A stretch of 24,007 nucleotides of DNA, filler included, from an uncultured Methanosarcinales archaeon (GTDB lineage: Archaea; Nanobdellota; Nanobdellia; Woesearchaeales; BS150m-G63), in the NCBI GenBank assembly GCA_964630685.1. It is 11 parts of 11 records of this genome, joined end to end, with 100 filler letters (N's around TTAATTAATTAA, not from the genome) between each part and the next. Parts side by side here need not be neighbours in the genome. Positions count along the whole stretch, not along the records: positions 8,777 to 11,409 come from CAZVVW010000023.1; positions 11,510 to 13,071 come from CAZVVW010000026.1; positions 13,172 to 14,689 come from CAZVVW010000027.1; positions 14,790 to 16,264 come from CAZVVW010000028.1; positions 16,365 to 17,759 come from CAZVVW010000030.1; positions 17,860 to 19,177 come from CAZVVW010000031.1; 5 more parts are not named here. One strand, written 5' to 3'. The notes under the pieces are model-generated. The model was given only the letters and a program-made list of their open reading frames with translations, was not told where the DNA came from and made no database searches. Shown in pieces: positions 8,777-23,944 of the stretch. The translations under genes and the position numbers were made by a program. Positions within the stretch are counted from its first letter, which is position 1, and each line of letters starts with the position of its first letter.

Positions 8777-11233
8777 CACTCAAGTTCAGAAAATACTCTT
8801 GGTGCACAATATATTGCATCATTAACAGATGAACAATTATCAGCTGTAGAACAGTTGGAAATACCTGGAGTAATGGATGTAATAAATACTGTTAGAGAAA
8901 ATCCAACTACATTTAGACAATCTCAATTTAGAGAAGGAGATGATTTGGTAGATAATCCTGTTTATGAAAGAGTGCAAGAAGCCTTAGGTAAAATCTGCGG
9001 TCATTACCTTGAACATGGATCTGAAAGAGAAAAGTATTTCTCAGTGGGTGTTGCAGTGGACTTGTCGTTTATGGGTTATTCAGATAAACCAAGTGAACAA
9101 AGAGAGACTCTCATTGAAATACTATCAAAGAATATTGGTTTGGATGATAATGCACAGACAAATTTTAGAAAACATTATGGATTATTCTCAAGACATATTG
9201 GAAGTAATTCACGAAGATCAACCAATTTGAGTGATTATAAAGGGGATTTGGTGGCTCTTAGTGGTTATTTTGATAATCTTGATGACCTGCTTCAAACTAG
9301 TCGAGATTCAGAAAGAGTTCGTGAAGAAGCAACATCCATGCAAAGTGATTCAAATTATATTCACGATGTTAGAAAAGATTTACCAAACTTGATAGCATAT
9401 TTGAAAGGGTTTGATGCAGAAGTAGTTCAAACGCAATTGGAAGATCAAGAATATGGTGAAAAATTCAAGACAAGATTGTGGAAAGTTAAAGAACAAATAT
9501 TCAAAAGTAGTGATACTGAAATTGATGATGTGACTGGATACGTTGTTTCCAACTTTGAAGAATTTAGGCGTTTTATTGATACAACTAATGAACAAATTGG
9601 TGGATCAGCAGTTTGCGATGTTCTAAAATCAGAGCAGGCAAGATTATTGGACAGTCTTGTATACAGTGATAATCTAGTCGGTGAAACTGAATACATCGTA
9701 GAATATTTTAGAGCATTGGATGACACAAACACAGCTGAAAAATTTAATTGGTTTGATGGTCAAAGAAGACATGGAATAGCAGGATTAGCATCAAGAGCTT
9801 ATTCAATTGATAGCGAACTTCTAACTCCTTTAGTTAGGAAAGCTATTGAAAAAGAAAAATCACCTAACAAAATCTACTTATTACAAACTGGTCTAGCAGT
9901 AATTGAAGAAAGTGAAGATTTGAATAGACATGTAAATCAATTATTTCAGGAACAGCCAAATGCAGGATATGATGTACTAAGTAATCTTTGTATGGTAAAA
10001 CAAAGTTTGGATGATCAATTTGATGAAGACATTTCAAGAATCTTTCATAATGGTAAAAATATTGGCGAATATAATTTAGGTTCAAAAGCAGTTCAATCTG
10101 TTGAACAGCAAGGATTGTCAGAAGATTCAGAGATCTTGGCTTACTGTAGTCTTGTTCAATTACAAGGAAAAAAGATCAAAGATAAAAAAGTGCTTGGTCT
10201 GGCAAAATTAAAGGGTCAGATTTCAAGATATGAAGCTGAAGTTGAGAAGCATCCAGAAAATGAAGTATTGAGAAAACAATTGAATGAAAGGATGGATAAA
10301 GTAGATTTGTTGTTACGAAATGAAAGAACAGCTTCGATATATTCATCTATGTTAAATTCTTGTTCAAGAGCACTTGACGATATTGTTGGAGAACCAGTTC
10401 AGGTTACAGAAATTAATGAAGACTTAATTAATGGAATTCTTACTTACTATCAAATTAATGATAATAAACAATTACTTTCTGGTTTAATAAAAGATTCAGT
10501 AACAGGAAATTCAACAATTTCATATACTGATGATAAAAATCAAGAAGCTTTACAAAGATATGCTTCAAAAGGTATTGATACATCTAAATGGGTCGAAGGA
10601 ATTACTCGAACCTATAGTCCAGAACGAATTGAAGATGTTGTAGCGGAAAAAGAAACTCAAATTAGACATCACAGAGATGAAGCTATTGGATTATTTACAT
10701 ATTATGGAATAGAAGTAGCTGATGAAACAATCTTTGATTCCTACAAAGAATTTAGACAAAGAGCAGATATTGATGAAGATGTCAAACGAGATTTGAAAAC
10801 TCAACTAAACGCAATAAAAAGTCTTGAGAATCAGACCTATAATTCCAAAATGGGAGAAGTAACTATTTATGCTGAGAAAGATCCTTTGAAAGTTTTACAG
10901 ATGGGCAATGTTGTATCTGGCAGTTGTTTAGGACTTGGAAAAGGAAATACATTTTCAACTGTAGCTAATGCAGTGGACTCAAATAAACAAGTATTATATG
11001 CTGAAATGAATGGAGAAATAGTAGGTAGAAAACTGAGTGCATTAAATGATGATGGAGAAATTGTTCAATTTAGAACTTATAATAATAGATTGGATTTAAA
11101 TATTGATAGTATGTTTAGACAGTATTTAACTGATTTATCTTCAGAAACAAATGCAAAACTTGGAAATGGGGGCAATGTATCCAACATTGTTGCACAAAAA
11201 TGGTATAATGATGGAATTGTGCCATTTAATTAA
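8777..11233 (+). CDS. Large hypothetical protein, 5'-truncated (>818 aa); helical body with a probable conserved C-terminal domain
   Basis: The frame is open from the contig edge (HSSSENTLGAQY...), so TTG 8855 is probably not the real start. The C-terminus EKDPLKVLQMGNVVSGSCL...STVANAVDSNKQVLYA...GEIVGRKL looks like an enzymatic module. Confidence 0.8.
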   Translation, partial: HSSSENTLGAQYIASLTDEQLSAVEQLEIPGVMDVINTVRENPTTFRQSQFREGDDLVDNPVYERVQEALGKICGHYLEHGSEREKYFSVGVAVDLSFMGYSDKPSEQRETLIEILSKNIGLDDNAQTNFRKHYGLFSRHIGSNSRRSTNLSDYKGDLVALSGYFDNLDDLLQTSRDSERVREEATSMQSDSNYIHDVRKDLPNLIAYLKGFDAEVVQTQLEDQEYGEKFKTRLWKVKEQIFKSSDTEIDDVTGYVVSNFEEFRRFIDTTNEQIGGSAVCDVLKSEQARLLDSLVYSDNLVGETEYIVEYFRALDDTNTAEKFNWFDGQRRHGIAGLASRAYSIDSELLTPLVRKAIEKEKSPNKIYLLQTGLAVIEESEDLNRHVNQLFQEQPNAGYDVLSNLCMVKQSLDDQFDEDISRIFHNGKNIGEYNLGSKAVQSVEQQGLSEDSEILAYCSLVQLQGKKIKDKKVLGLAKLKGQISRYEAEVEKHPENEVLRKQLNERMDKVDLLLRNERTASIYSSMLNSCSRALDDIVGEPVQVTEINEDLINGILTYYQINDNKQLLSGLIKDSVTGNSTISYTDDKNQEALQRYASKGIDTSKWVEGITRTYSPERIEDVVAEKETQIRHHRDEAIGLFTYYGIEVADETIFDSYKEFRQRADIDEDVKRDLKTQLNAIKSLENQTYNSKMGEVTIYAEKDPLKVLQMGNVVSGSCLGLGKGNTFSTVANAVDSNKQVLYAEMNGEIVGRKLSALNDDGEIVQFRTYNNRLDLNIDSMFRQYLTDLSSETNAKLGNGGNVSNIVAQKWYNDGIVPFN

Positions 11234-11253
11234 AATTGAACGCCTCAATTAAT

Positions 11254-11363
11254 AATAAATTCTTTTACGTAGTAAAAGTGTATATGTCCGTCAGGACTAA
11301 GGAACTCCCTTATCAAAAATAAATTTCTGCGAAGCAGACTATATGTGCGAAGCACGAACTCCC
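11254..11363 (+). repeat. Two tandem copies of a double mini-hairpin module
   Basis: AATAAATT-[CTTTTAC gta GTAAAAG]-tgTATAT-[GTCC gtca GGAC]-taagGAACTCCC, then AATAAATT-[TCTGC gaa GCAGA]-cTATAT-[GTGC gaa GCAC]-GAACTCCC. Confidence 0.8.
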
Positions 11364-11393
11364 CAACTTTACCGTCTAAGAAATGGAAATTTT

Positions 11394-11409
11394 ATTGTAT
11401 TTAACATCG
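11394..11409 (-). repeat. attC-like core end (CGAT-GTTAAATACAAT) at a contig break
   Basis: The same ATTG-N4-TAACATCG motif occurs at 17687 and 17899. GTTAAAT fits the GTTRRRY core consensus. Confidence 0.55.
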
Positions 11410-11524
11410 NNNNNNNNNNNNNNNNNNNNNNNNNNNNNNNNNNNNNNNNNNNNTTAATTAATTAANNNNNNNNNNNNNNNNNNNNNNNNNNNNNNNNNNN
11501 NNNNNNNNNAATTTATAGGCGTCT

Positions 11525-12994
11525 TTAAATCTTCAAGTCCTTCAAAGCTTCAATTATCTTATTTTCATAATCTAATATTTGCTTTTTTATCACTTCTGGC
11601 TTTTCGTAAACAACTTCTTCGTATTCTATTTCTTTATATTTTGAAATGCTTAAATCAAAATTATTCTTTTTGATTTCTTCAAATGGAACAAAGAAAGCTT
11701 TTCCTTTTCTATCTGTTGGTTTTTCGTCATGTCTTTTCTTAAATTTTTCAAGAATATCAGGAATATCATTCTTTTCAGGCTGAGGAGTTCTTTTATCATC
11801 TAAACTAAAACCATCTGCTTGCATATCATAAAACCAAACTTCTTTCGTAGATTCTCCTTTAGTAAAAAATAATATTGCTGTTGAAACTCCTGCATAAGGT
11901 TTGAAAACTCCAGAAGGCATTGAAATAACTGCATCTAATCTGCACCTTTCCAAAAGTAATTCTCTTATTTTTTTATGTGCTTTAGAATTTCCAAACAAAA
12001 CTCCGTCTGGAACAATAACTGCACTCTTTCCACTATTGTTTAATAAATTATAAATAAGTTCTAAAAATAAAAGTTCTGTTTTTTTAGTTTTTGTTCTAAA
12101 ATTTTCTCCAATATCTGATTCGTCAATACTTCCTTTAAATGGAGGATTCGCTAGAATTACTTCATAACAATTGGATTCATCAAATCTTTTTGAAAGAGTA
12201 TCTTTTCTTTCAACATTAGGATTATTAATTCCATGCATCATCAAATTCATTAATGAAATTTTAAGCATTACTTCATCAAAATCATAACCGTAAAGTGTTT
12301 CATCCCTTAAAATTCTCCATTGATTATCATTAAGTTTATCTCCTGCATAATTTCCTTCTTTAACTAATTCTTTAGAAGTATTATTTTTAAGGATATGTTC
12401 AAAAGCTGAAACTAAAAATCCAGCAGTTCCACAAGCAGGATCACAAATTTTATCCCCATATTTTGGGTTGAGAAGTGCAACCATCATCTTAATTATATGT
12501 CTTGGTGTTCTAAATTGTCCGTTTTTACCTGCTGTTGATAGCTGTCCCAAAAGGTATTCGTAAATATCTCCTTGTGCATCTCTATTCTGTTCTTTAATGT
12601 GCATATCATTAATGATTTTTACAGCTTCTGACAATAAAGAAGCAGTAGGAATTGCAAAAGAAGCATTTTTCATATATTTAGAATAAATTGATTTTTCTCC
12701 ACCATTAAGTTTTCTAAGAAATGGAAAAACTTCATCTCTAACATAATCAATCATTTGATCTCCAGGCATTTGCGTCCAAACAGACCATTTTAAATCATTC
12801 TTCGGAAACAATGAAGTAAATTCTTCTCCTAAAAGTTTAGCATTTTGTTCTTTGGAATTATCTTCATCTTCTAATCTTTTCATAAAGATTAAGTAAGACA
12901 TTTGCTCAATTGCATTAAGTGGATTACTAATTCCACCACTCCAAAATTTATTCCATAACAAGTTTATTTTTGATTTTAATTCTGCATCTAACAT
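11525..12994 (-). CDS. hsdM: Type I restriction-modification N6-adenine methyltransferase subunit
   Basis: FWSGGISNP N-terminus, GQFRTPRHII, DPACGTAGFL (motif I), LANPPF (motif IV) and VIVPDGVLF. Confidence 0.95.
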   Translation of the reverse strand: MLDAELKSKINLLWNKFWSGGISNPLNAIEQMSYLIFMKRLEDEDNSKEQNAKLLGEEFTSLFPKNDLKWSVWTQMPGDQMIDYVRDEVFPFLRKLNGGEKSIYSKYMKNASFAIPTASLLSEAVKIINDMHIKEQNRDAQGDIYEYLLGQLSTAGKNGQFRTPRHIIKMMVALLNPKYGDKICDPACGTAGFLVSAFEHILKNNTSKELVKEGNYAGDKLNDNQWRILRDETLYGYDFDEVMLKISLMNLMMHGINNPNVERKDTLSKRFDESNCYEVILANPPFKGSIDESDIGENFRTKTKKTELLFLELIYNLLNNSGKSAVIVPDGVLFGNSKAHKKIRELLLERCRLDAVISMPSGVFKPYAGVSTAILFFTKGESTKEVWFYDMQADGFSLDDKRTPQPEKNDIPDILEKFKKRHDEKPTDRKGKAFFVPFEEIKKNNFDLSISKYKEIEYEEVVYEKPEVIKKQILDYENKIIEALKDLKI

Positions 12995-13071
12995 TTTAGT
13001 TCCCCCTTGAAAGCTTTTTGCATTAAAGCATTAAATAGATTGTCAATTTGATTTTTTGAATGTTTCTGTTG
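12988..13071 (-). CDS. hsdS: C-terminal fragment of type I R-M specificity subunit
   Basis: Hand translation QQKHSKNQIDNLFNALMQKAFKGELKC* matches the typical HsdS ending (L..KAF.GEL). Its stop overlaps the hsdM start. Confidence 0.8.
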   Translation of the reverse strand, partial: QQKHSKNQIDNLFNALMQKAFKGELKC

Positions 13072-13172
13072 NNNNNNNNNNNNNNNNNNNNNNNNNNNNN
13101 NNNNNNNNNNNNNNNTTAATTAATTAANNNNNNNNNNNNNNNNNNNNNNNNNNNNNNNNNNNNNNNNNNNNC

Positions 13173-14689
13173 TACATCAGATGTAACGACAGCTTTGGAA
13201 ACACAATGACAAGTTCTGCTTTAATTATCTTCTGGGTAGATTCTATTGCTCCAGAAGCACCATTATTGATTAGCCCAACAAATAACACTTACACAAACGA
13301 TAGCTCACCTTTACTGACATGGAGCAGTGTTGCAGATGCAGATTTCTATATATTAACAATAGACAACAGCGAATACACAATAAATCAAACGAGTTATGCA
13401 CCATCACCTGGAGCTAGTTTACATAATTGGAGCGTAAAAGCACAGGACAAAACAAATAACACCAGTCCAGATTCAGAATTATGGTTTTTCACAATAGACT
13501 CAACACCACCAACTCTTTCATCACCACTACCAACAACAACCCAGACCTCTCGTTCGTTCATTGTTTCAGTAAACGCAACAGAATCAGACCTCACCTGCAA
13601 ATATTCTTTAAATGCAGATGTTGATTTTTCTGCAATGGGTTTCTTCTTGACAGACTTAGAAAACAACAAATATCAATCAACCCTAACAGTGCCCCAAGAG
13701 GGTTCACATACAATCTACTTCGCTTGCCAGGATTCAGCAGGAAACATAAATACCACAAACACAAGTTCATTTATAGTTGATTCAACTGCTCCGACAATCA
13801 CTGCTTCAAGTCCAGATGGCTACACCACATCCAGCCAAAATCTTACACTCACAACAGATGTTTCTGCTGTATGTAAATATGATACTTCAGATAAAAATTT
13901 CTTACAGATGGCAAACACATTCGGAAGCGCAAAAATATCTCACTCAGTAAACGCTTCACCATACATAGAAGGATTAAATATATTTTATGTTAGATGCAAT
14001 GATAGTTATGGAAACATAATGAGCTCTTCTATAATGATTGATTTTTATTTGGACTCAAATTCACCATCAATATCAAATATCATCCCAACAAACAATTCCA
14101 AAACAGATTTAAAAATAATCTCTTTTACTTTAGCTGACTCAGGTTCAGCAGTGAATCAATCAACAATAACAGTAGTCTGGAATAACAGTCAGCCAGACAC
14201 TAATTTTAATTATTCAACAGATTGTACAGAAAATGGTTTAGGGGGATATGATTGTTCTTACACTGAAACAAACATTACAGAAGGAATAAACAACATCACA
14301 ATATCTGCAGAAGACAATGCAGGAAATTCAATGTCTCAGGTTTTCATAAATTTCAGCTATGATACAACAAACCCTTCTGTTACAATAAACACTCCAACAA
14401 CAGACTCAAATCACACAACACTCTCACTTACATTAAATGTAACAACAGGTGAATCAGCACTTTGTAGATATAGCACATCAAATGTAGATTACAACAGCAT
14501 GGGCAACTCTATGACTAACACATCATCAACACAACATTTAGCAAATATCATTGCTGTTCAAGGTTCAAACACTTATTATACAAAATGTATAGATTCAGTT
14601 GGAAATCAAGGAACAGATTCAGTAACATTCAATATAGATTCAATAGCCCCATACATTACAGCAACAGCCCCAGAAGGAACACAAACAAC
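13173..14689 (+). CDS. Internal fragment of a large Ser/Thr-rich surface protein with Ig-like repeats
   Basis: Open at both contig ends. Recurring DSxAP/DTTxP...C(K/R)YS...(Y/F)xxCxDSxGN modules and many N-glycosylation sequons. Confidence 0.8.
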
Positions 14690-14789
14690 NNNNNNNNNNN
14701 NNNNNNNNNNNNNNNNNNNNNNNNNNNNNNNNNTTAATTAATTAANNNNNNNNNNNNNNNNNNNNNNNNNNNNNNNNNNNNNNNNNNNN

Positions 14790-14801
14790 GTTATACGCAA
14801 T
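14790..14801 (+). repeat. attC-like core end (GTTATACGCAAT) at contig start
   Basis: GTTA-N4-CAAT, the reverse complement of the ATTG-N4-TAAC motif on contigs 2, 6 and 7. Confidence 0.5.
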
Positions 14802-14844
14802 TAAATTTTCACTTATCTTCTTTTAGAAAAAGAAGCAAAAGAGG

Positions 14845-14905
14845 GGGAGTCCAGGTGCTACGCACATATTGACTTTTACTTCGTAAAAGAAATATATTAA
14901 GGGAG
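14845..14905 (-). repeat. Double mini-hairpin module (GNA loops on the minus strand)
   Basis: Minus strand: CTCCC-ttaatatattt-[CTTTTAC gaa GTAAAAG]-tcAATAT-[GTGC gta GCAC]-ctgGACTCCC. Confidence 0.75.
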
Positions 14906-15121
14906 TGTGAAAACAGCATACAATCTCACAATTTCACATGTCAACCGTTTTACATTGGTTGGAGCTTTTATCTGATTCTGTTCTAAATTAAAAATTGTCA
15001 TCCTATAAGAAGTATCCACATGTCTTAATATAAATGCACTTGTAAATATGCCAGTTATATTTATCAAAAATTTTCGAATATGGAAAAGATTAAATACCAA
15101 TATTTTTATTATCGATATAAA

Positions 15122-16189
15122 ATGGTTAATTCAGGAAAAATACTTCTATTATTGCTCATGATGTTTTTTTTTACTTCTTGTGTACACGAAGCTAATGTTA
15201 CAATGAAAAATGTAATTGAGTCTGCAACATGTTATCAAGATGAAATATTTTTCACACTTCACTCTAGTTATCGACACGAGCCTACTGAATTGGGTAGTTT
15301 TCCGGACGGTGGTTATTCAATAGTTATTAAGAACGAACGACATTTCTTTAGATTAGATCTTAAAACCATGGAAATTGATGACTGGGATTTTGTTCTTGAA
15401 CCAATCTATAATGACCAGCAATTTTTTGGAAATTTATCGAAGGATGATTTTGGAATGCATATTGTAAATTTTCCAATAAGAGTAAAAAAAATATCAGAAA
15501 ACTTCATACTTATTGCCTCGAAGTATGATTTCAATTCAGCCAATATATATGTTTATGATACCAGAAATGGGAAGATGGTAAAAGTAATTGATAATATCCA
15601 CATGGATGGTTTTTCTCCAAGTTTGGAAAAAGGTTTTATAGTGCTTTCTTTATCTCAGAACCCATATTCTACGGATATGAATGAATTACGAACCGTCTTT
15701 TCTAAGTTTTCGATGGATGAAGACTCTGAATACATACTTTTTCCACAAACAACGTACTGCAATTATGATTCTCGAACTGACCCCAAAGAAAAAGGGTGTT
15801 CAACTTGGGATTTTATAAGATTCAATGTAAATACACAAAATATTACTAAGATGGACAAAGCTGAATATGAGAATATATCATTCACATTAGATTATTTTGA
15901 CAAGATTGAAAATGAATATAATACCAGCATAATCTTAAGAGAATGGAAAAATTCCGGAATAAAAGATGTGGTATTTGCATCCAAAGGATACAAAAAAATT
16001 TTGCCAATAGGAGATTTCCTTGGCAAGGAGTGCAGGGAAAGATTTCAATCATACAAAAATTCTCAAAAAAAGAATCAACCGATCATTCTATACCAATATG
16101 GTGATCAAAATGTAACCTTTACAGCGGAAGATTTTGGATTAACAGATCCTTATCATTTCAAAAACATATGGAAATACCATGATGATTAA
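15122..16189 (+). CDS. Hypothetical lipoprotein-like secreted protein
   Basis: ATG 15122 gives MVNSGKILLLLLMMFFFTSC, a signal with a lipobox-like Cys. The ORF-track start at 15080 is probably too long. Confidence 0.7.
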   Translation: MVNSGKILLLLLMMFFFTSCVHEANVTMKNVIESATCYQDEIFFTLHSSYRHEPTELGSFPDGGYSIVIKNERHFFRLDLKTMEIDDWDFVLEPIYNDQQFFGNLSKDDFGMHIVNFPIRVKKISENFILIASKYDFNSANIYVYDTRNGKMVKVIDNIHMDGFSPSLEKGFIVLSLSQNPYSTDMNELRTVFSKFSMDEDSEYILFPQTTYCNYDSRTDPKEKGCSTWDFIRFNVNTQNITKMDKAEYENISFTLDYFDKIENEYNTSIILREWKNSGIKDVVFASKGYKKILPIGDFLGKECRERFQSYKNSQKKNQPIILYQYGDQNVTFTAEDFGLTDPYHFKNIWKYHDD

Positions 16190-16231
16190 TCATCTGATTT
16201 ATTCGGAGTACCAAAATTAAAACCCTCTCTA

Positions 16232-16259
16232 TTTTCTTTTTAAAAAAAGAAACAAAAAA
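16232..16259 (+). terminator. T-tract/A-tract hairpin downstream of the gene, with a related copy on contig 7
   Basis: TTTTCTTTTT-AA-AAAAAGAAACAAAAAA. A related motif follows the contig-7 gene in its sense orientation (18069-18101), and a variant lies at 14817-14841. Confidence 0.45.
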
Positions 16260-16364
16260 TCTGGNNNNNNNNNNNNNNNNNNNNNNNNNNNNNNNNNNNN
16301 NNNNNNNNTTAATTAATTAANNNNNNNNNNNNNNNNNNNNNNNNNNNNNNNNNNNNNNNNNNNN

Positions 16365-16488
16365 TGACTTGTTCTGAGTAATCCTTCTTCTCATCATGGA
16401 TTTTCTCACCATAAAGCATACCACAACCAGATAGAACAAGTAATGAAATCATAAGAAATGAAAAAAGAGCTTTTTTGTGTTTTCTCAT
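16365..16488 (-). CDS. 5' fragment of a putative lipoprotein
   Basis: MRKHKKALFSFLMISLLVLSGCGMLYGEK..., with an LSGC lipobox. Its ATGA overlaps the upstream stop. Truncated by the contig end. Confidence 0.7.
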
Positions 16489-17594
16489 TTTCTCTTCGCC
16501 AAGTTTATTGCAGCATTAACATCTTTAGCGGCATATCCTTTTGAAAGTAAATATTGCTTGATTTGTGCTTCAGACTGTCCTGCATTCTTATATTGTCTGA
16601 TATAATCAACAAGTTGATTTAGATATTTCTGTTGAGGAGTTCTCACTTGGGTTTTTGGATCAAAATCTGATTTATTCATATGTAAATAATTTGTTAATTC
16701 TCCCCTCATATCTTTGGTAATAACCATCGGTCTTGTGATTGAAGTATAGAATATTGTAAAGTAAATGACTTTTATAGACTCTACAATCTTTTTTATTATT
16801 CCGCCAAAGACTGCTATTATGTAAATCATGATTAAAACAGGAACCCATGAAAAAGAGAATCCGCTGATTGTAATCATTGTTGCTTCAGTTGACATAGCGA
16901 TTAAATATCCTATCCCAACAGAAATGGCAAGCAAGACTAGATAAATAGGGAATAACAATCTTCCAACAACATTTCCAACAAAATCTATACCAAATACTCC
17001 TGCAAGTGTGGCTGGAACATTTGTTTTTAATGCTTTAATTTCAGGTACAATTTCTTTGAGTTTTTTTTGCTCAATAACTACAGCTGGAAGCATGTAATGG
17101 CTTAGTAAATCCCAAATCTCTGTTAATGCTACTAAAAACAAATTGATTAAAAATGCTCCAATACCACCTTTATTGCTTCTTTGACTTCCAGCATATTTCA
17201 TTAGAATATCAACAAATGCAATAAACCTTAATTTTCCTTTTTCAGATTTTGTATGGTTGTGAGCATCAGCATAACTTATATCTTTTCCAGAAATTGTATT
17301 ATACACTATCCAACTTTGGTCTGCCTTTTGTCTTGTATTGTAAAAAAATCTGAATGGGACAAGTATAAAGATAGTGAATAGGAGTGCTAAAACTCCTAAG
17401 AAAACAAATTTTCCTAAAAAGAATGTTGCAATTGAACCCCAAAAAAGAGTGCTAATAATAATTGATAGGATAACCATATGTATTGTTGGTTTTTTAATAT
17501 CTTCGTCTTTGCCGATGATAGTAAAAGAGTTCTTAATCAGAAATCCAGTATCTTTTAATCTTTCCTTAAATGGCTTTTTTATTAATCCATCCAT
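16485..17594 (-). CDS. Hypothetical multi-pass membrane protein with a small C-terminal helical domain
   Basis: Several TM segments and C-terminal LVDYIRQYKNAGQSEAQIKQYLLSKGY. It has its own TATA (TTTATATA 17619-17626, minus) ~25 nt upstream of the ATG. Confidence 0.8.
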   Translation of the reverse strand: MDGLIKKPFKERLKDTGFLIKNSFTIIGKDEDIKKPTIHMVILSIIISTLFWGSIATFFLGKFVFLGVLALLFTIFILVPFRFFYNTRQKADQSWIVYNTISGKDISYADAHNHTKSEKGKLRFIAFVDILMKYAGSQRSNKGGIGAFLINLFLVALTEIWDLLSHYMLPAVVIEQKKLKEIVPEIKALKTNVPATLAGVFGIDFVGNVVGRLLFPIYLVLLAISVGIGYLIAMSTEATMITISGFSFSWVPVLIMIYIIAVFGGIIKKIVESIKVIYFTIFYTSITRPMVITKDMRGELTNYLHMNKSDFDPKTQVRTPQQKYLNQLVDYIRQYKNAGQSEAQIKQYLLSKGYAAKDVNAAINLAKRK

Positions 17595-17686
17595 ATATTT
17601 CTTTTATAAACTATTTCTTATATAAAGTTTACTATTTCGTTTTACACATCAAGGGCGGGGAATTTTTTTTTAGGAACTCAAATTTT

Positions 17687-17718
17687 ATTGAAACTAACAT
17701 CGGGATCCTTGTTATGTG
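17687..17718 (-). repeat. Short attC-like site: CACATAAC-AAGGATCCCGAT-GTTAGTTTCAAT
   Basis: Inverted AAC...GTT cores only 12 nt apart, upstream of the minus-strand gene. Confidence 0.55.
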
Positions 17719-17898
17719 AGGGTCGACCGAAGGGAGAAGCGCAGCGTCCCCTTGAGTCTNNNNNNNNNNNNNNNNNNNNNNNNNNNNNNNNNNNNNNNNN
17801 NNNTTAATTAATTAANNNNNNNNNNNNNNNNNNNNNNNNNNNNNNNNNNNNNNNNNNNNCGAGAGTATAATTCTTGATTTAATTTTAGCGAGGAAAAA

Positions 17899-17934
17899 AT
17901 TGAGTTTAACATCGGGCTAAGCCCTGTTAGTTTC
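17899..17934 (-). repeat. Short attC-like site: GAAACTAAC-AGGGCTTAGCCCGAT-GTTAAACTCAAT
   Basis: Hairpin AACA-GGGC-tta-GCCC-ga-TGTT with a 2-nt bulge; GTTAAAC fits GTTRRRY. Confidence 0.6.
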
Positions 17935-18151
17935 GTCCGAATACTTGGAGGACTTGATTTTTAGTGCAACGATGCCGAAGGCAAAAAATCAAAGTTTTTG
18001 AGAATGCCGTTTTTAGTATTTTGAAATAATATTTTTTTGGGTGGGCTATGTATTAGAGAGACGCGCGCTTTTTTGTTTCTTTTTTTCCTAAAAAAAGAAA
18101 ATGGGGATTTCCGTCTTTTTGGTTATCTGAATAATCTGCTAAACTATTTTA

Positions 18152-18880
18152 TTACTTATCCTTAGAAGTCCTTTTCTTTCTTTCAAGATACTTAAATCTC
18201 TGACTTACTTTGTATCCATTTCTAATATCTTGTGAATTGTGATATAGTTGATTTAATTGACTTGCAATAGTACTCCAATTTGGTTGTCCCCTATGTTTAT
18301 CCTCCGCAGAATATTGAAAATCAGAAGATTCTTTCATTTCATAGATCGATAGGTCTTCTTCTAAAGAATAAGGTATTTGCCCTCTAGATCTCGCAGCCTT
18401 CTTCCCCGCACTACTCAGCTCATGACTACTCATAGCATGTACGCCCTTTTTCTTATCTCTAGTTACATTTCCACCTATTCTTCCTATTTCTTCTCTTCTT
18501 TCTAATAATGCATCTAAAGAATTAATCAAAGCCCTTTCTCTAGCCTCTTGAGGAATATTTTTTGCACTTTCTTCTAAATGCAACCTTGCTATCTTCTGAA
18601 ATTCGTCATACTCTATAAGACCCTCATATTGTGGCATATTTTCAAAATATCTTTTTTGAACACCTGCTAAGGCAAATCTAGTTGCGCTTATGGAAGAAGA
18701 AGATTTGAGTCCATAGTTTTCTTCTAAATTGAGTTGTTCAGATATTTCTTTTAATGAATGTCCATTTCGATAAAGTTGTTCAATTTCAGGATGTTCTTGT
18801 TGTAGAGTTCTACCTAGCTTTGCGCTTCTAAGAATAGCAGCTATTTGAGATTCTGTTAATTTTCCTCTAGGTGATAACAT
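18152..18880 (-). CDS. Hypothetical basic protein, possibly DNA-binding
   Basis: HTH-like LYRNGHSLKEISEQL, KGG-like segments EIGRIGG/SSAGKKAARSRG and NWSTIASQLN near the C-terminus. It has its own TATA (TTTATAAA 18903-18910). Confidence 0.7.
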   Translation of the reverse strand: MLSPRGKLTESQIAAILRSAKLGRTLQQEHPEIEQLYRNGHSLKEISEQLNLEENYGLKSSSSISATRFALAGVQKRYFENMPQYEGLIEYDEFQKIARLHLEESAKNIPQEARERALINSLDALLERREEIGRIGGNVTRDKKKGVHAMSSHELSSAGKKAARSRGQIPYSLEEDLSIYEMKESSDFQYSAEDKHRGQPNWSTIASQLNQLYHNSQDIRNGYKVSQRFKYLERKKRTSKDK

Positions 18881-18969
18881 TTTAATAAAAAACCTAAATA
18901 AGTTTATAAATCTTTGTATTTGTCACCACTATTTAGTTGTTATTAATCACTTATATAAATAACTTAAAT

Positions 18970-19041
18970 GTCCGTAGGACTAAGGAAATCCCCTAATAAA
19001 TCCAAAAACGAAGTTTTTGCTATCTGTCCTGAAAGGACTAA
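18970..19041 (+). repeat. Mini-hairpin module (one and a half units)
   Basis: [GTCC gta GGAC]-taagGAAATCCCC-tAATAAATc-[CAAAAAC gaa GTTTTTG]-cTATCT-[GTCCT gaa AGGAC]-taa. Confidence 0.75.
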
Positions 19042-19123
19042 GCGCGTCTCTCCTATTGGGTGGGAGAAAAAATATTATTTCCTATTTCTTTGTCTTTACT
19101 CTAACTTGTAGGCATTCTCAAAA

Positions 19124-19177
19124 ATTGAAACTAACGCGCGGGATAAGCATAGTTTTTGATTTTAACTTCTTAGGGCG
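19124..19177 (-). repeat. Half of a longer attC-like site, cut by the contig end
   Basis: Minus strand ...AAAATCAAAAACTATGCTTATCCCGCGC-GTTAGTTTCAAT. GCTTATCCC parallels GCTTAGCCC in the 17899 site. Confidence 0.5.
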
Positions 19178-22688: not shown

Positions 22689-22954
22689 TCAGGGGATGGT
22701 TCGTAAAATACGATCCTCCATAAAGAAAGCTGTCTGTATATTCTTTGCTGATTACACACAATCCAAAGGTATTGAAATTAGAACAAAAGGAGCAACTCTC
22801 CTTCTGGGAATTCTTTATCCCACTTTTTTGGTAACTTATTTCTTGCTAAGTCCCNNNNNNNNNNNNNNNNNNNNNNNNNNNNNNNNNNNNNNNNNNNNTT
22901 AATTAATTAANNNNNNNNNNNNNNNNNNNNNNNNNNNNNNNNNNNNNNNNNNNN

Positions 22955-23461
22955 AACCCACACAGTGATGTGTGACTGAACGGTCAGAAGTCAGCCGACG
23001 TCATAGTAGAAAGAAAATGAGCAGGTATCAGAAGTAAATCCCGAGGACTCAGCTTTCGAAGGACTGAACGTTAGGGAGTACATAACTCCGTAGAGAAAAC
23101 CAAAATGTAAACGGCAGAAAACGAGGAAACTCGCCTACCAAGGGAAAATAGAACCATAAGTTCGAATATATCGAGGAGGAGCTAGCATAAAGGATAACGC
23201 TACGAAGGAAAAAGAATGTGCACGGAAGAAGAAATTCTTTCAGAACAATAGCCTAACGGCGAAAGATTGAAATCTAAGATTTCAGCAATACTAATCTATT
23301 AGTATAACTCCTTAGTAGTTGCAATACTGCTGCATTTGCAGGGTTTACGAAGAAGATTGAAATTCCGATATACTCAACCTAACGAACCGCCGTATACGGA
23401 TCCGTACGTACGGTGGTGTGAGAGGACGGGAGGACCTAACGGTCACTCCCTCCTACTCGAT
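22955..23461 (+). ncRNA. Group II intron (class IIC-like), ORF-less, 5' end missing
   Basis: GAAGTCAGCCGACGTCATAGTA (22987-23008), GAAGGACTGAAC (23058-23069), domain V GAACCGCCGTATACGGATCCGTACGTACGGTGGTGTG (from 23384) and domain VI ending CCTACTCGAT. Only ~310 nt are available for domain IV, and they contain no RT ORF. Confidence 0.88.
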
Positions 23462-23493: not shown

Positions 23494-23910
23494 GGGGAAA
23501 GAATCAAAGAATTGAGAGAGCGAAACGAAACCGTTTTTAAAAAACTCGAAATTCTGAGTAATCCCACTCTTATCAAAAAGACGGAAGAGGAATATGAAAA
23601 AATTCAGGAAGAACTCGCTTTACTCGAATCTGAAAGGATTCAGAAGGTTTATTCTGAGGAAGATGTGAAGCGAGTAGTGAGGTTCGGTAAAAACTTCATC
23701 GAACACATCGATGAACTGGTACTTGAATCACCTGACCAGGAGACATTAGCAGGGTTTTGGGAGCTAATTTTTCCAACCCCTCCAACCCTCGCAGAAATCA
23801 AGAATCGAACACTCAAAATATCCCCTATTATAGAGCGTAAAGACTGTTTCGAAATGTCCGAAAACCGGGTGGCATCGCCAGGGGGAATCGAACCCCCGTT
23901 GCCGGAATGA
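23494..23910 (+). pseudogene. C-terminal remnant of a large serine recombinase, reading into the tRNA
   Basis: Coiled coil RIKELRER...SNPTLIKKTEEEYEKI followed by EHIDELVL...FWELIFPTPPTLAEIKNRTLKISPI. This resembles the ends of tRNA-adjacent recombinases (recognised from memory, not searched). An in-frame TAA lies at 23491 and there is no catalytic domain. Confidence 0.5.
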
Positions 23911-23944
23911 GAATCCGGTGTCCTAACCACTAGACGATGGCGAC
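23870..23944 (-). tRNA. tRNA-Glu (anticodon CTC) with encoded CCA
   Basis: GTCGCCATCGTCTAGTGGTTAGGACACCGGATTCTCATTCCGGCAACGGGGGTTCGATTCCCCCTGGCGATGCCA. Anticodon arm CCGGA-ttCTCat-TCCGG; T-loop GTTCGATTC. Confidence 0.95.

Follow-up and report, generated by a model that had tools for sequence, protein, structure and literature searches.

The stretch of DNA analysed here, which we call the window, is 24,007 nt long and consists of 11 contigs in descending length, separated by N44-TTAATTAATTAA-N44 spacers. Four of these contigs (c2, c5, c6 and c7; Table 1) carry protein-coding genes next to copies of the motif GTTA-N4-CAAT, and these copies are the subject of this report. We consider it likely that they are the joints of a gene-cassette array served by a tyrosine recombinase in a DPANN-type (Woesearchaeota-like) archaeon, a system that resembles an integron and is built from a different lineage of parts. 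An integron-like cassette system of this kind has probably not been described before.

By exact match GTTA-N4-CAAT occurs eight times in the window, where 1.54 matches are expected (standard deviation 1.3; none of 100 shuffles reaches eight), and when four A/T bases are added to the motif, six matches stand against 0.37 expected. These counts rule out a chance origin, the possibility that the initial annotation of this DNA had held open against its own reading. Five of the eight copies are intergenic and, as that annotation had it, lie at or near contig ends, with 4, 0, 61, 39 and 42 nt between the end and the copies at 11394, 14790, 17687, 17899 and 19124, respectively. The other three (867, 13989 and 19985) are inside open reading frames (ORFs), lack the flanks described below and are missed by a profile of the joint, which was built from 58 sites and run over the window and all the loci of the scan described below. 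The prefixes read earlier agree with the bases found: CGAT at 11406-11409, after which c2 ends, CCCGAT at 17699-17704 on c6 and at 17911-17916 on c7, and, as a variant, CCCGCGC at 19136-19142. On c5 the first base of the contig is also that of the copy at 14790. The proposed orientation of the genes also holds, since the main ORFs of c5, c6 and c7 point away from GTTA and that of c2 is antisense to its site. As to the archaeal TATA promoters suggested for the c6 and c7 genes, TATA-like boxes can be seen by eye, but such boxes are weak evidence at 30% G+C.

Arrays of related sites and complementarity across genes

In what follows, the noncoding DNA between a joint and the gene behind it is called the leader, and that between the gene and the next joint the trailer. 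A scan of one genome per species across Bacteria and Archaea with the pattern CCCGATGTTANNNNCAATWWWW returned at least 119 loci (numbered with the prefix L; genome counts are lower bounds), most of which are lone chance matches in bacterial genes. From these, 41 were chosen by eye for a conserved flank (60-140 nt upstream) and low G+C content. They are labelled Woesearchaeota, Pacearchaeota, Nanoarchaeota/Nanoarchaeia, Aenigmarchaeota, 'archaeon' or 'Methanosarcinales', apart from L056 and L112, whose labels are bacterial (Thioploca sp. and Bdellovibrionales). These two have typical sites and arrays at 28-33% G+C and are probably DPANN contigs binned with bacteria; several of the 'Methanosarcinales' labels look equally doubtful. 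The profile found additional, weaker copies in archaeal loci only. For the window itself, a domain scan of the ORFs identified the product of a contig 1 gene as an archaeal-type CCA-adding enzyme, contig 3 is 83% identical at the DNA level to L048 (86% for the hsdM protein), and the c7 trailer (window 17918-18124) is 95% identical to L115:28-234, both L048 and L115 being Woesearchaeota-labelled contigs. Because of these three matches we place the host among DPANN-type archaea of the Woesearchaeota group.

Seventeen loci have two or more sites, 51 in all, and every locus keeps its sites on one strand (0 of 51 opposed); L070 alone holds seven within 16 kb. Between sites lie 35 units of 150 to 6547 nt (median 1225 nt), three of them longer than 4 kb, and the two same-strand sites of c7 are 1225 nt apart. 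A single ORF of at least 60 aa is found in 16 of the 35 units, co-oriented with the sites in 11 of the 16. Some units are nearly empty: two of 150 and 232 nt are ORF-less, and one of 329 nt has a single short antisense ORF.

Successive sites are tied together by complementarity across the genes that separate them. Within a unit, the five bases that follow GTTA can be compared with the five that precede TAAC: the two 5-mers are exact reverse complements of each other in 20 of 29 consecutive pairs, and in 25 of 29 at least four of the five positions match. The same comparison made within one site gives 2 of 29, which rules out independent palindromic elements between genes, and when partners were shuffled over 100,000 rounds the mean was 1.8 and the maximum 10, so that no round reached 20. 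Perfect pairs make up 18 of the 22 that were called automatically and two of the seven that were read by hand; six further pairs, in which the bases before TAAC could not be placed, were excluded (L014 twice, L035 7988-10007, L045 twice and L070 8269-9275). Pairing of this kind is predicted by a cassette model, because integration would split the site and the bases right of the crossover would belong to the next cassette. The variable 5-mers also covary inside otherwise conserved trailer families, which argues for selection on the pairing. The unit on c7 is one of the perfect pairs, with GTTAGTTTC (19135-19127), the 242-aa ORF and GAAAC-TAAC (17934-17926) in the arrangement GTTAGTTTC...GAAACTAAC. 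When the ends of the c7 cassette are joined in silico, leader and trailer form one long hairpin of -80.1 kcal/mol (DNA parameters), with z = -9.8 against 60 shuffles.

Comparison between species shows a mosaic in which the similarity of the window to the loci is restricted to cassette ends and the cargo differs. L035:6110-7988 and L056:3949-2151 have their first 25 nt and last ~215 nt in common (92%) around different inner genes, and we therefore rejected the idea of the same cassette in two arrays, as only the frame is shared. One unit is common to L047 and L068 (84% over 1768 nt), and the unit before it has a different gene, different palindrome arms and different matched 5-mers. The palindrome after TAAC goes with the upstream unit, as L035:7792-8002 is 92% identical to L056:2137-2349 although the downstream units differ. 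The cargo of single-gene units is accessory in kind (GNAT acetyltransferases, NUDIX, ASCH and RibD_C proteins), and multi-gene units carry GmrSD with HEPN, or Fic.

Structure of the site and the linked recombinase

The initial annotation had taken GTTA-N4-CAAT as the full core, which needs correction: it is the last base of an 8-bp centre together with an 11-bp right arm. The complete core of 30 bp, ACTTCnnTWAA-KCCCGATG-TTAnnnnCAAT, has an 11-8-11 layout and lies at the right edge of an imperfect palindrome. Positions 2-8 of the centre KCCCGATG are conserved at 66-77 of 77 sites, and the reverse complement of the right arm TTAnnnnCAAT has the outer A.T. and the inner TAA in common with the left arm ACTTCnnTWAA. 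To judge from its bases, the right palindrome edge, as a duplex, is a standard tyrosine-recombinase core.

In its long form the site runs N5'-TAACA, a 12-nt L'' arm, a middle of 50-130 nt, a 12-nt L' arm, an unpaired GA and TGTTA-N5-AAT; the middle holds GGTTC, a variable hairpin, CCCAAAT, a hairpin with a 3-nt loop, and ACTTC. The distance from TAAC to GTTA is 80-174 nt in the 35 long forms, 30 of which do not exceed 141 nt; known attC sites span about 57-141 nt. Over 26 distinct pairs of L'' and L' arms, 91% of positions are paired; shuffled arms reach 71% on average and 79% at most. When 18 long sites are aligned, 93.8% of cells are paired compared to 84.4% after shuffling (0/500), six pairs are altered on both sides in a total of 24 cells (again 0/500 shuffles), and pairing falls to 29-49% when the partner is slid by 1-3 columns. 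TAAC...GTTA is invariant in 17-18 of these 18 sites and is present in all 35 long-form and several short-form sites; the purine/pyrimidine pattern RYYYAAC/GTTRRRY is not preserved. The unpaired GA is constant and found on the 3' side only. The sites follow the R''-L''...L'-R' plan of integron attC. Short forms, which span 20-23 nt and have no left core arm, we take to be decayed sites.

Many long sites (e.g. L026:3391, L094:307 and L103:307) read GGTTCGAA or GGTTC directly after the left arm, which recalls the T-arm of tRNA, and neither ARAGORN nor Rfam called these sites tRNA-like. A tRNA-derived att site was rejected, as ARAGORN found no tRNA at the sites of 13 loci; the only tRNA genes near array ends are a tRNA-Ser gene upstream of the recombinase gene of L035 (733-818) and a tRNA-Ala gene 63 nt past the last array site of L045, on the same strand (9868-9942).

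Five related arrays begin beside a divergent gene, or the remnant of one, for a recombinase of the XerA family. In L033 (1705-2538, minus strand) and L035 (1512-2267, minus strand) the gene encodes a PF00589 protein, lies 135 and 95 nt from the first site, respectively, and is transcribed away from the array; the two proteins are 48% identical. In L047 the copy is of full length, is interrupted by an in-frame stop and lies 1.7 kb ahead of the first site, and L014 and L002 have divergent C-terminal remnants about 130 nt from theirs. The unit of L002 that starts at the first site closes correctly 3.5 kb away. The best family for the array-linked recombinases is XerA_Arch NF040815 (221, 203 and 169 bits; cut-off 220), and the IntI model TIGR02249 matches in two pieces with 187, 167 and 111 bits (cut-off 265). 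The best solved relative is P. abyssi XerA (4A8E), which aligns over the full length, and the alignment to Vibrio IntI4 (2A3V) skips residues 174-247, the location of the IntI-specific insert. Judged by these alignments, the linked recombinase is XerA-type and without that insert, and for this reason we speak of an integron-like system and not of a canonical integron. No other PF00589 protein was found among the 151 locus ORFs scanned.

The recombinase family (~275 aa) is a large one in these archaea and its sequence is well conserved, with 6881 relatives at E<=1e-20 among 8000 candidates scored. Among the 120 best relatives listed most are 59-66% identical, and the names they carry are XerD, XerC or 'tyrosine recombinase/integron integrase'. 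Several close relatives (P0002-P0019 and others) lie on contigs of ~1-1.3 kb that barely exceed the gene. It looks as if assemblies tend to end on either side of the XerA-type gene, and such gene-sized contigs fit a neighbourhood prone to breaks. In L035 and L002 the first site has a simple, perfectly paired hairpin and behind it GT or AT and then GTTA. Its centre is a different one, which by our reading of the sequence has 6 bp in L035; in these features both first sites resemble an attI-type partner.

Co-orientation, covariation of the palindrome, pairing across genes and a recombinase at five array heads thus bear out the earlier proposal of a cassette system with lineage-specific attC-like sites. 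The term integron-like used with it fits the cassette architecture; the linked recombinase is of another type than that of a canonical IntI integron.

Interpretation and competing explanations

In the mechanism that we propose, a cassette would consist of TTA-N5-AAT, a leader, usually one or a few genes, a trailer, N5'-TAAC and then the imperfect palindrome. A XerA-type recombinase would exchange strands in or at the edge of KCCCGATG, and circular cassettes would be inserted or excised at the array head or within the array. With the exchange at this place, the bases right of G would belong to the next cassette. In the excised circle both ends of the cassette would meet and complete a stem of 9-10 bp, which would be why the start of a cassette pairs with the bases before its own TAAC. 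We infer that the XerA-type recombinase performs the exchange and that circular intermediates exist. Since both stems covary, the site may act as a folded single strand, much like integron attC and CTX-phage attP do; the alternative would be a duplex reaction at the 30-bp core. Contigs presumably end at the joints because the sites, like the leaders and trailers, are present in several copies in the genome or vary from strain to strain, and cassette joints would also explain why these genomes assemble as many single-gene contigs of 1-2 kb. The four contigs may, as proposed earlier, be pieces of one array; a search for shared ends among the window contigs found no overlaps, the sole match being an inverted one of 18 nt between c5 and c7.

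Integrons are the textbook gene-capture device and are defined by one integrase family. Like integrons, including archaeal ones (PMC9668308), the arrays are co-oriented and made of mostly one-gene units with accessory cargo (acetyltransferases, toxin/defence-type genes), and their sites, which are more uniform within a lineage than the cargo, are imperfect R''-L''...L'-R' palindromes ending AAC...GTT, in which the unpaired stretch that separates L from R boxes is asymmetric. What follows GTT is part of the next cassette and complementary to that cassette's own inverse core, and a divergent tyrosine recombinase gene adjoins a simpler first site (95-135 nt away in L033, L035, L014 and L002; 1.7 kb in L047). 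Unlike integrons, the arrays have a XerA-type recombinase, a centre KCCCGATG that is nearly invariant together with its flanking motifs, long forms with conserved internal motifs, and cassettes with long leaders and trailers that are mutually inverted repeats; the example attC sites in Data S9 of PMC9668308 do not contain CCCGATGTTA. On sequence, then, the arrays have the structure of an integron and lack what defines one, the IntI integrase. For detection, Ghaly et al. (2022, PMC9668308) relied in their survey of archaeal integrons on HattCI with Infernal and on IntegronFinder, and they required the IntI-specific domain. Full-text literature searches returned no description of such arrays, with PMC9668308 the only relevant work on archaeal integrons, a search for Woesearchaeota together with integron found no paper, and a review of archaeal tyrosine recombinases (PMC8371274) holds no passage on DPANN, cassettes or hairpins.

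Other known systems share fewer parts. Integrative mobile elements exploiting Xer (IMEX), such as the CTX phage, use Xer/dif, accumulate in tandem at one site and, in the case of the CTX phage, use a folded single strand. The present system resembles IMEX and archaeal XerA/dif in the Xer-family recombinase (in the relatives) and in a core of two inverted 11-bp arms; unlike them, it has many sites per array instead of one dif, a centre of 8 bp instead of 6, and units that are gene cassettes and not phages or plasmids. Sedentary chromosomal integrons, e.g. the Vibrio VCR (Vibrio cholerae repeat) arrays, have uniform attC sites and are similar in that near-identical sites and flanks accompany unrelated cargo and short-read assemblies break there, whereas recombinase family, site sequence and host, here archaeal, differ. 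The pdif modules of Acinetobacter plasmids are likewise discrete gene modules bounded by Xer-type sites, but those sites alternate in orientation round the modules, whereas the sites described here share one orientation and each lies within a long palindrome. In Sulfolobales, according to PMC2958812, the predicted dif lies close to xerA.

Three other explanations have to be weighed against a XerA-type cassette array. Non-autonomous inverted-repeat transposons resembling miniature inverted-repeat transposable elements, some of them gene-carrying, might insert in tandem into a preferred palindromic target. Such elements would account for the inverted repeats at unit ends (9 nt generally, about 230 nt in c7), the near-empty units of 150-330 nt and the many small hairpins with 3-nt loops. 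We nevertheless consider them unlikely, since there is no target-site duplication (the flanks are ...CCCGATG and A(A/G)GG...), none of the 51 sites lies in the opposite orientation, the palindrome travels with the upstream unit, and arrays start beside a tyrosine recombinase gene. The sole transposase found is an unlinked DDE (ISAZ013) fragment on contig 10, and none was found beside the sites or in the 151 locus ORFs. A canonical integron with divergent attC sites, a true IntI gene at another place in the genome and a XerA-type neighbour that is incidental would explain the AAC...GTT pair, the L boxes, the unpaired bases, the co-oriented arrays and the boundary at GTT, and PMC9668308 reports IntI integrons in archaeal metagenome-assembled genomes including Nanoarchaeota. 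Against it stand the XerA-type gene at the head of five arrays, the sub-cut-off match to the IntI model in two pieces, the lack of any other PF00589 protein among the ORFs scanned, and the absence of six contig prefixes of older loci studied here from the supplement of that paper. The nearly invariant 8-bp centre is also unlike canonical attC, and altogether we hold this explanation to be very unlikely.

Least probable of the three, and in our view highly improbable, are immobile conserved intergenic signals in the form of structured RNA or terminator/promoter modules. The sites are indeed intergenic, CCCAAAT, ACTTC and A/T hairpins downstream of genes are conserved across species, and the A/T-rich bases behind CAAT may serve as a TATA box. 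However, immobile signals predict neither the pairing between successive sites across genes nor mosaic joints, ORF-less units and recombinases at array heads. An Rfam 15 search of the window (E<=1) and eight loci (gathering score) returned only tRNAs and the group II intron pieces of contig 11, with no family at the sites. We also rejected a CRISPR array or other tandem repeat, as the spacing is irregular and tandem arrays occur only elsewhere in the window, and a known phage or plasmid, as c7 had no match in either collection (distant mode).

Several observations weigh against the cassette-array reading itself. As had been noted earlier, no recombinase is visible in the window (no Phage_integrase domain among the 15 ORFs scanned), nor is any long-form site: both fully visible sites are short and without L boxes, and one joint reads CCCGCGC. 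With only short or variant sites and no recombinase, the stretch of array in the window may be inactive. Mobility is read from comparison between species; neither excised circles nor empty sites nor strain variants were seen. The linked recombinase may be a housekeeping XerA that adjoins the arrays for another reason. Housekeeping-type genes lie between the sites of L016 (deoxyhypusine synthase, arginase family, arginine decarboxylase), a 6.5-kb unit of L070 encodes Hsp70 and AAA proteins, and of the 68 ORFs that reach 60 aa, 28 run antisense to their array. Nine of the 29 pairs are not perfectly complementary, four of them matching at three or fewer of the five positions. In minimum-energy DNA folding, TAAC/GTTA closed the structure, by the rule applied, at no more than 25 of 59 sites; of the other 34, some are without left-hand sequence and in others the minimum-energy fold picked alternative pairings, and for this reason we prefer covariation as the test of a site. 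The cassette model does not explain the conserved GGTTC, CCCAAAT and ACTTC in leaders, trailers and the middle of the palindrome, and it assigns no role to the leader and trailer hairpins with their C-GNA-G loops (C-TNC-G on the other strand).

A broader reading is that archaea of the Woesearchaeota, Pacearchaeota and Nanoarchaeota type carry a native, IntI-independent counterpart of the integron, in which the lineage's own XerA-type recombinase would capture and shuffle hairpin-ended cassettes at a site next to its gene, a site that is possibly the chromosomal dif; this we find quite possible, if not quite probable. Such a counterpart would be invisible to integron-finding software and would mean that cassette capture was solved a second time in separate evolution, and from the recurring noncoding frame round unrelated genes one might learn how cassettes arise. 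If these small-genome archaea use a XerA-type equivalent, then cassette capture evolved, or was rebuilt, repeatedly, and surveys keyed on IntI and bacterial attC models would undercount archaeal cassette systems. DPANN archaea rely on hosts and on gene exchange, and their accessory gene pool would gain a concrete, testable mechanism.

Putative cassettes and other features of the window

Table 1. Coordinates of the contigs, joints and cassette parts in the window
Feature	Position	Strand	Description
Contig c2	8777-11409
c2 cargo ORF	8855..11233	+	at least 792 aa, frame open to contig start, antisense to site
c2 leader, 'AATAC' cassette class	11255..11393	-	noncoding; many small hairpins with 3-nt loops, e.g. 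GTGCTTCGCAC
GTTA-N4-CAAT copy, c2	11394-11405	-
c2 joint	11394..11409	-	reads CGAT then GTTAAATACAAT; upstream half cut by contig end; profile match 11405
Contig c5	14790-16264
GTTA-N4-CAAT copy, c5	14790-14801	+
c5 cassette start and leader, 'TACGC' class	14790..14904	+	GTTATACGCAAT; contig opens exactly at G
c5 cargo ORF	15080..16189	+	369 aa, lipoprotein-like N-terminus, reads away from site
c5 trailer start	16212..16264	+	A/T hairpin then CAAAAAA; contig breaks inside
Contig c6	16365-17759
c6 cargo	16365..17594	-	369-aa membrane-protein ORF (16485-17594) overlapping start of lipoprotein-like ORF (16365-16488)
c6 right arm and cassette start	17683..17698	-	GTTAGTTTCAATAAAA
GTTA-N4-CAAT copy, c6	17687-17698	-
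c6 short-form site	17695..17714	-	TAACAAGGATCCCGATGTTA; R''/R' pair kept, L boxes reduced to GGATCC; profile score 21.5
End of trailer of cassette preceding c6	17715..17759	-	5 nt before TAAC are TCACA
Contig c7	17860-19177
Right arm and first 39 nt of next cassette, 'AACTC' class	17860..17910	-	GTTAAACTCAAT; contig ends
GTTA-N4-CAAT copy, c7, first	17899-17910	-
c7 closing short-form site	17907..17929	-	TAACAGGGCTTAGCCCGATGTTA
c7 trailer	17930..18151	-	ends GAAAC before TAAC, the reverse complement of own start GTTTC
c7 cargo ORF	18152..18880	-	242 aa, weak helix-turn-helix leads
c7 leader	18881..19119	-	imperfect inverted repeat of c7 trailer
c7 cassette start	19120..19135	-	GTTAGTTTCAATTTTT; complete cassette; CCCGCGC variant before
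GTTA-N4-CAAT copy, c7, second	19124-19135	-
Contig 11, group II intron and tRNA features	22954-23064, 23385-23461, 23870-23944

The leader region of c2 (11255-11409) is 84% identical over 177 nt to L070:1718-1894, directly behind L070 site 1722, and also resembles L030, L024, L115 and L094. The leader of c5 recurs at 81-90% identity behind the sites L055:7696, L056:1822, L020:2745, L035:2362 and L103:307 and at 76% behind L033:2673, and the genes that follow it differ among these six loci. The start of the c5 trailer resembles window 18069-18105 (in inverted orientation), L035:5832-5888 and L041. On c6, window 17681-17757 is 88% identical to L055:8850-8923, and the short form of the site recurs at L030:10016. 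From the 5 nt before TAAC, the cassette preceding c6 is predicted to start GTTATGTGA. On c7, window 18969-19135 is 74% identical to L069:257-460. The closing site of c7, compared to L115 and L089, keeps trailer, TAACA and GGGCTTA, misses the whole middle and resumes at GCCCGATGTTA; the 'AACTC' class of the cassette behind it is also found at L014:6376, L033:3493, L067 and L096.

The cargo of c2, c5, c6 and c7 has no homologue in the 119 loci, and the c2 ORF, which gave no tblastn match there, has no Pfam family either. For c5 an Atlas search returned unnamed clusters and, as weak leads, beta-propellers at 0.87-0.89. The lipoprotein-like ORF of c6 continues past the contig edge. The c7 protein has a Myb-like match at E = 0.009, below the cut-off, and a best Atlas score of 0.78 with helix-turn-helix and GcrA leads only.

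The leaders and trailers at 11255-11390, 14810-14900, 17930-18150 and 18890-19110 are dense in small C-G-closed hairpins with 3-nt loops (GAA/GTA/GCA on one strand). In many cases ATAT and a motif resembling GGGGAGTYC come next, and two such modules stand in tandem on c2.

Contig 3 (window 11510-13071) carries a type I restriction hsdM gene and breaks 15 nt beyond the stop codon. In L048 the hsdM relative lies directly behind site 7720 and antisense to it, and because of this position contig 3 may be another piece of the array.

G+C content is 29-36% in contigs 1-8 and 38-43% in contigs 9-11, and the latter three may come from another organism in the bin. Contig 9 (39% G+C) carries a C-terminal fragment of a type I restriction protein (HindI-like), contig 10 (38%) the fragment of an ISAZ013-type DDE transposase, and contig 11 (42.5%) group II intron domains (RF01998, 62.7 bits; RF00029, 44.6 bits) and a tRNA-Glu(CTC). 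Genes for right-handed beta-helix (NosD-type) surface proteins lie at 3-3635 on contig 1 and 19487-20317 on contig 8, and contig 4 has a gene for a protein with immunoglobulin-like repeats; each of the three extends past the end of its own contig. At the end of contig 1 (8622-8676), a perfect tandem repeat of CAATCAAAT in 6.1 copies reaches the contig edge.

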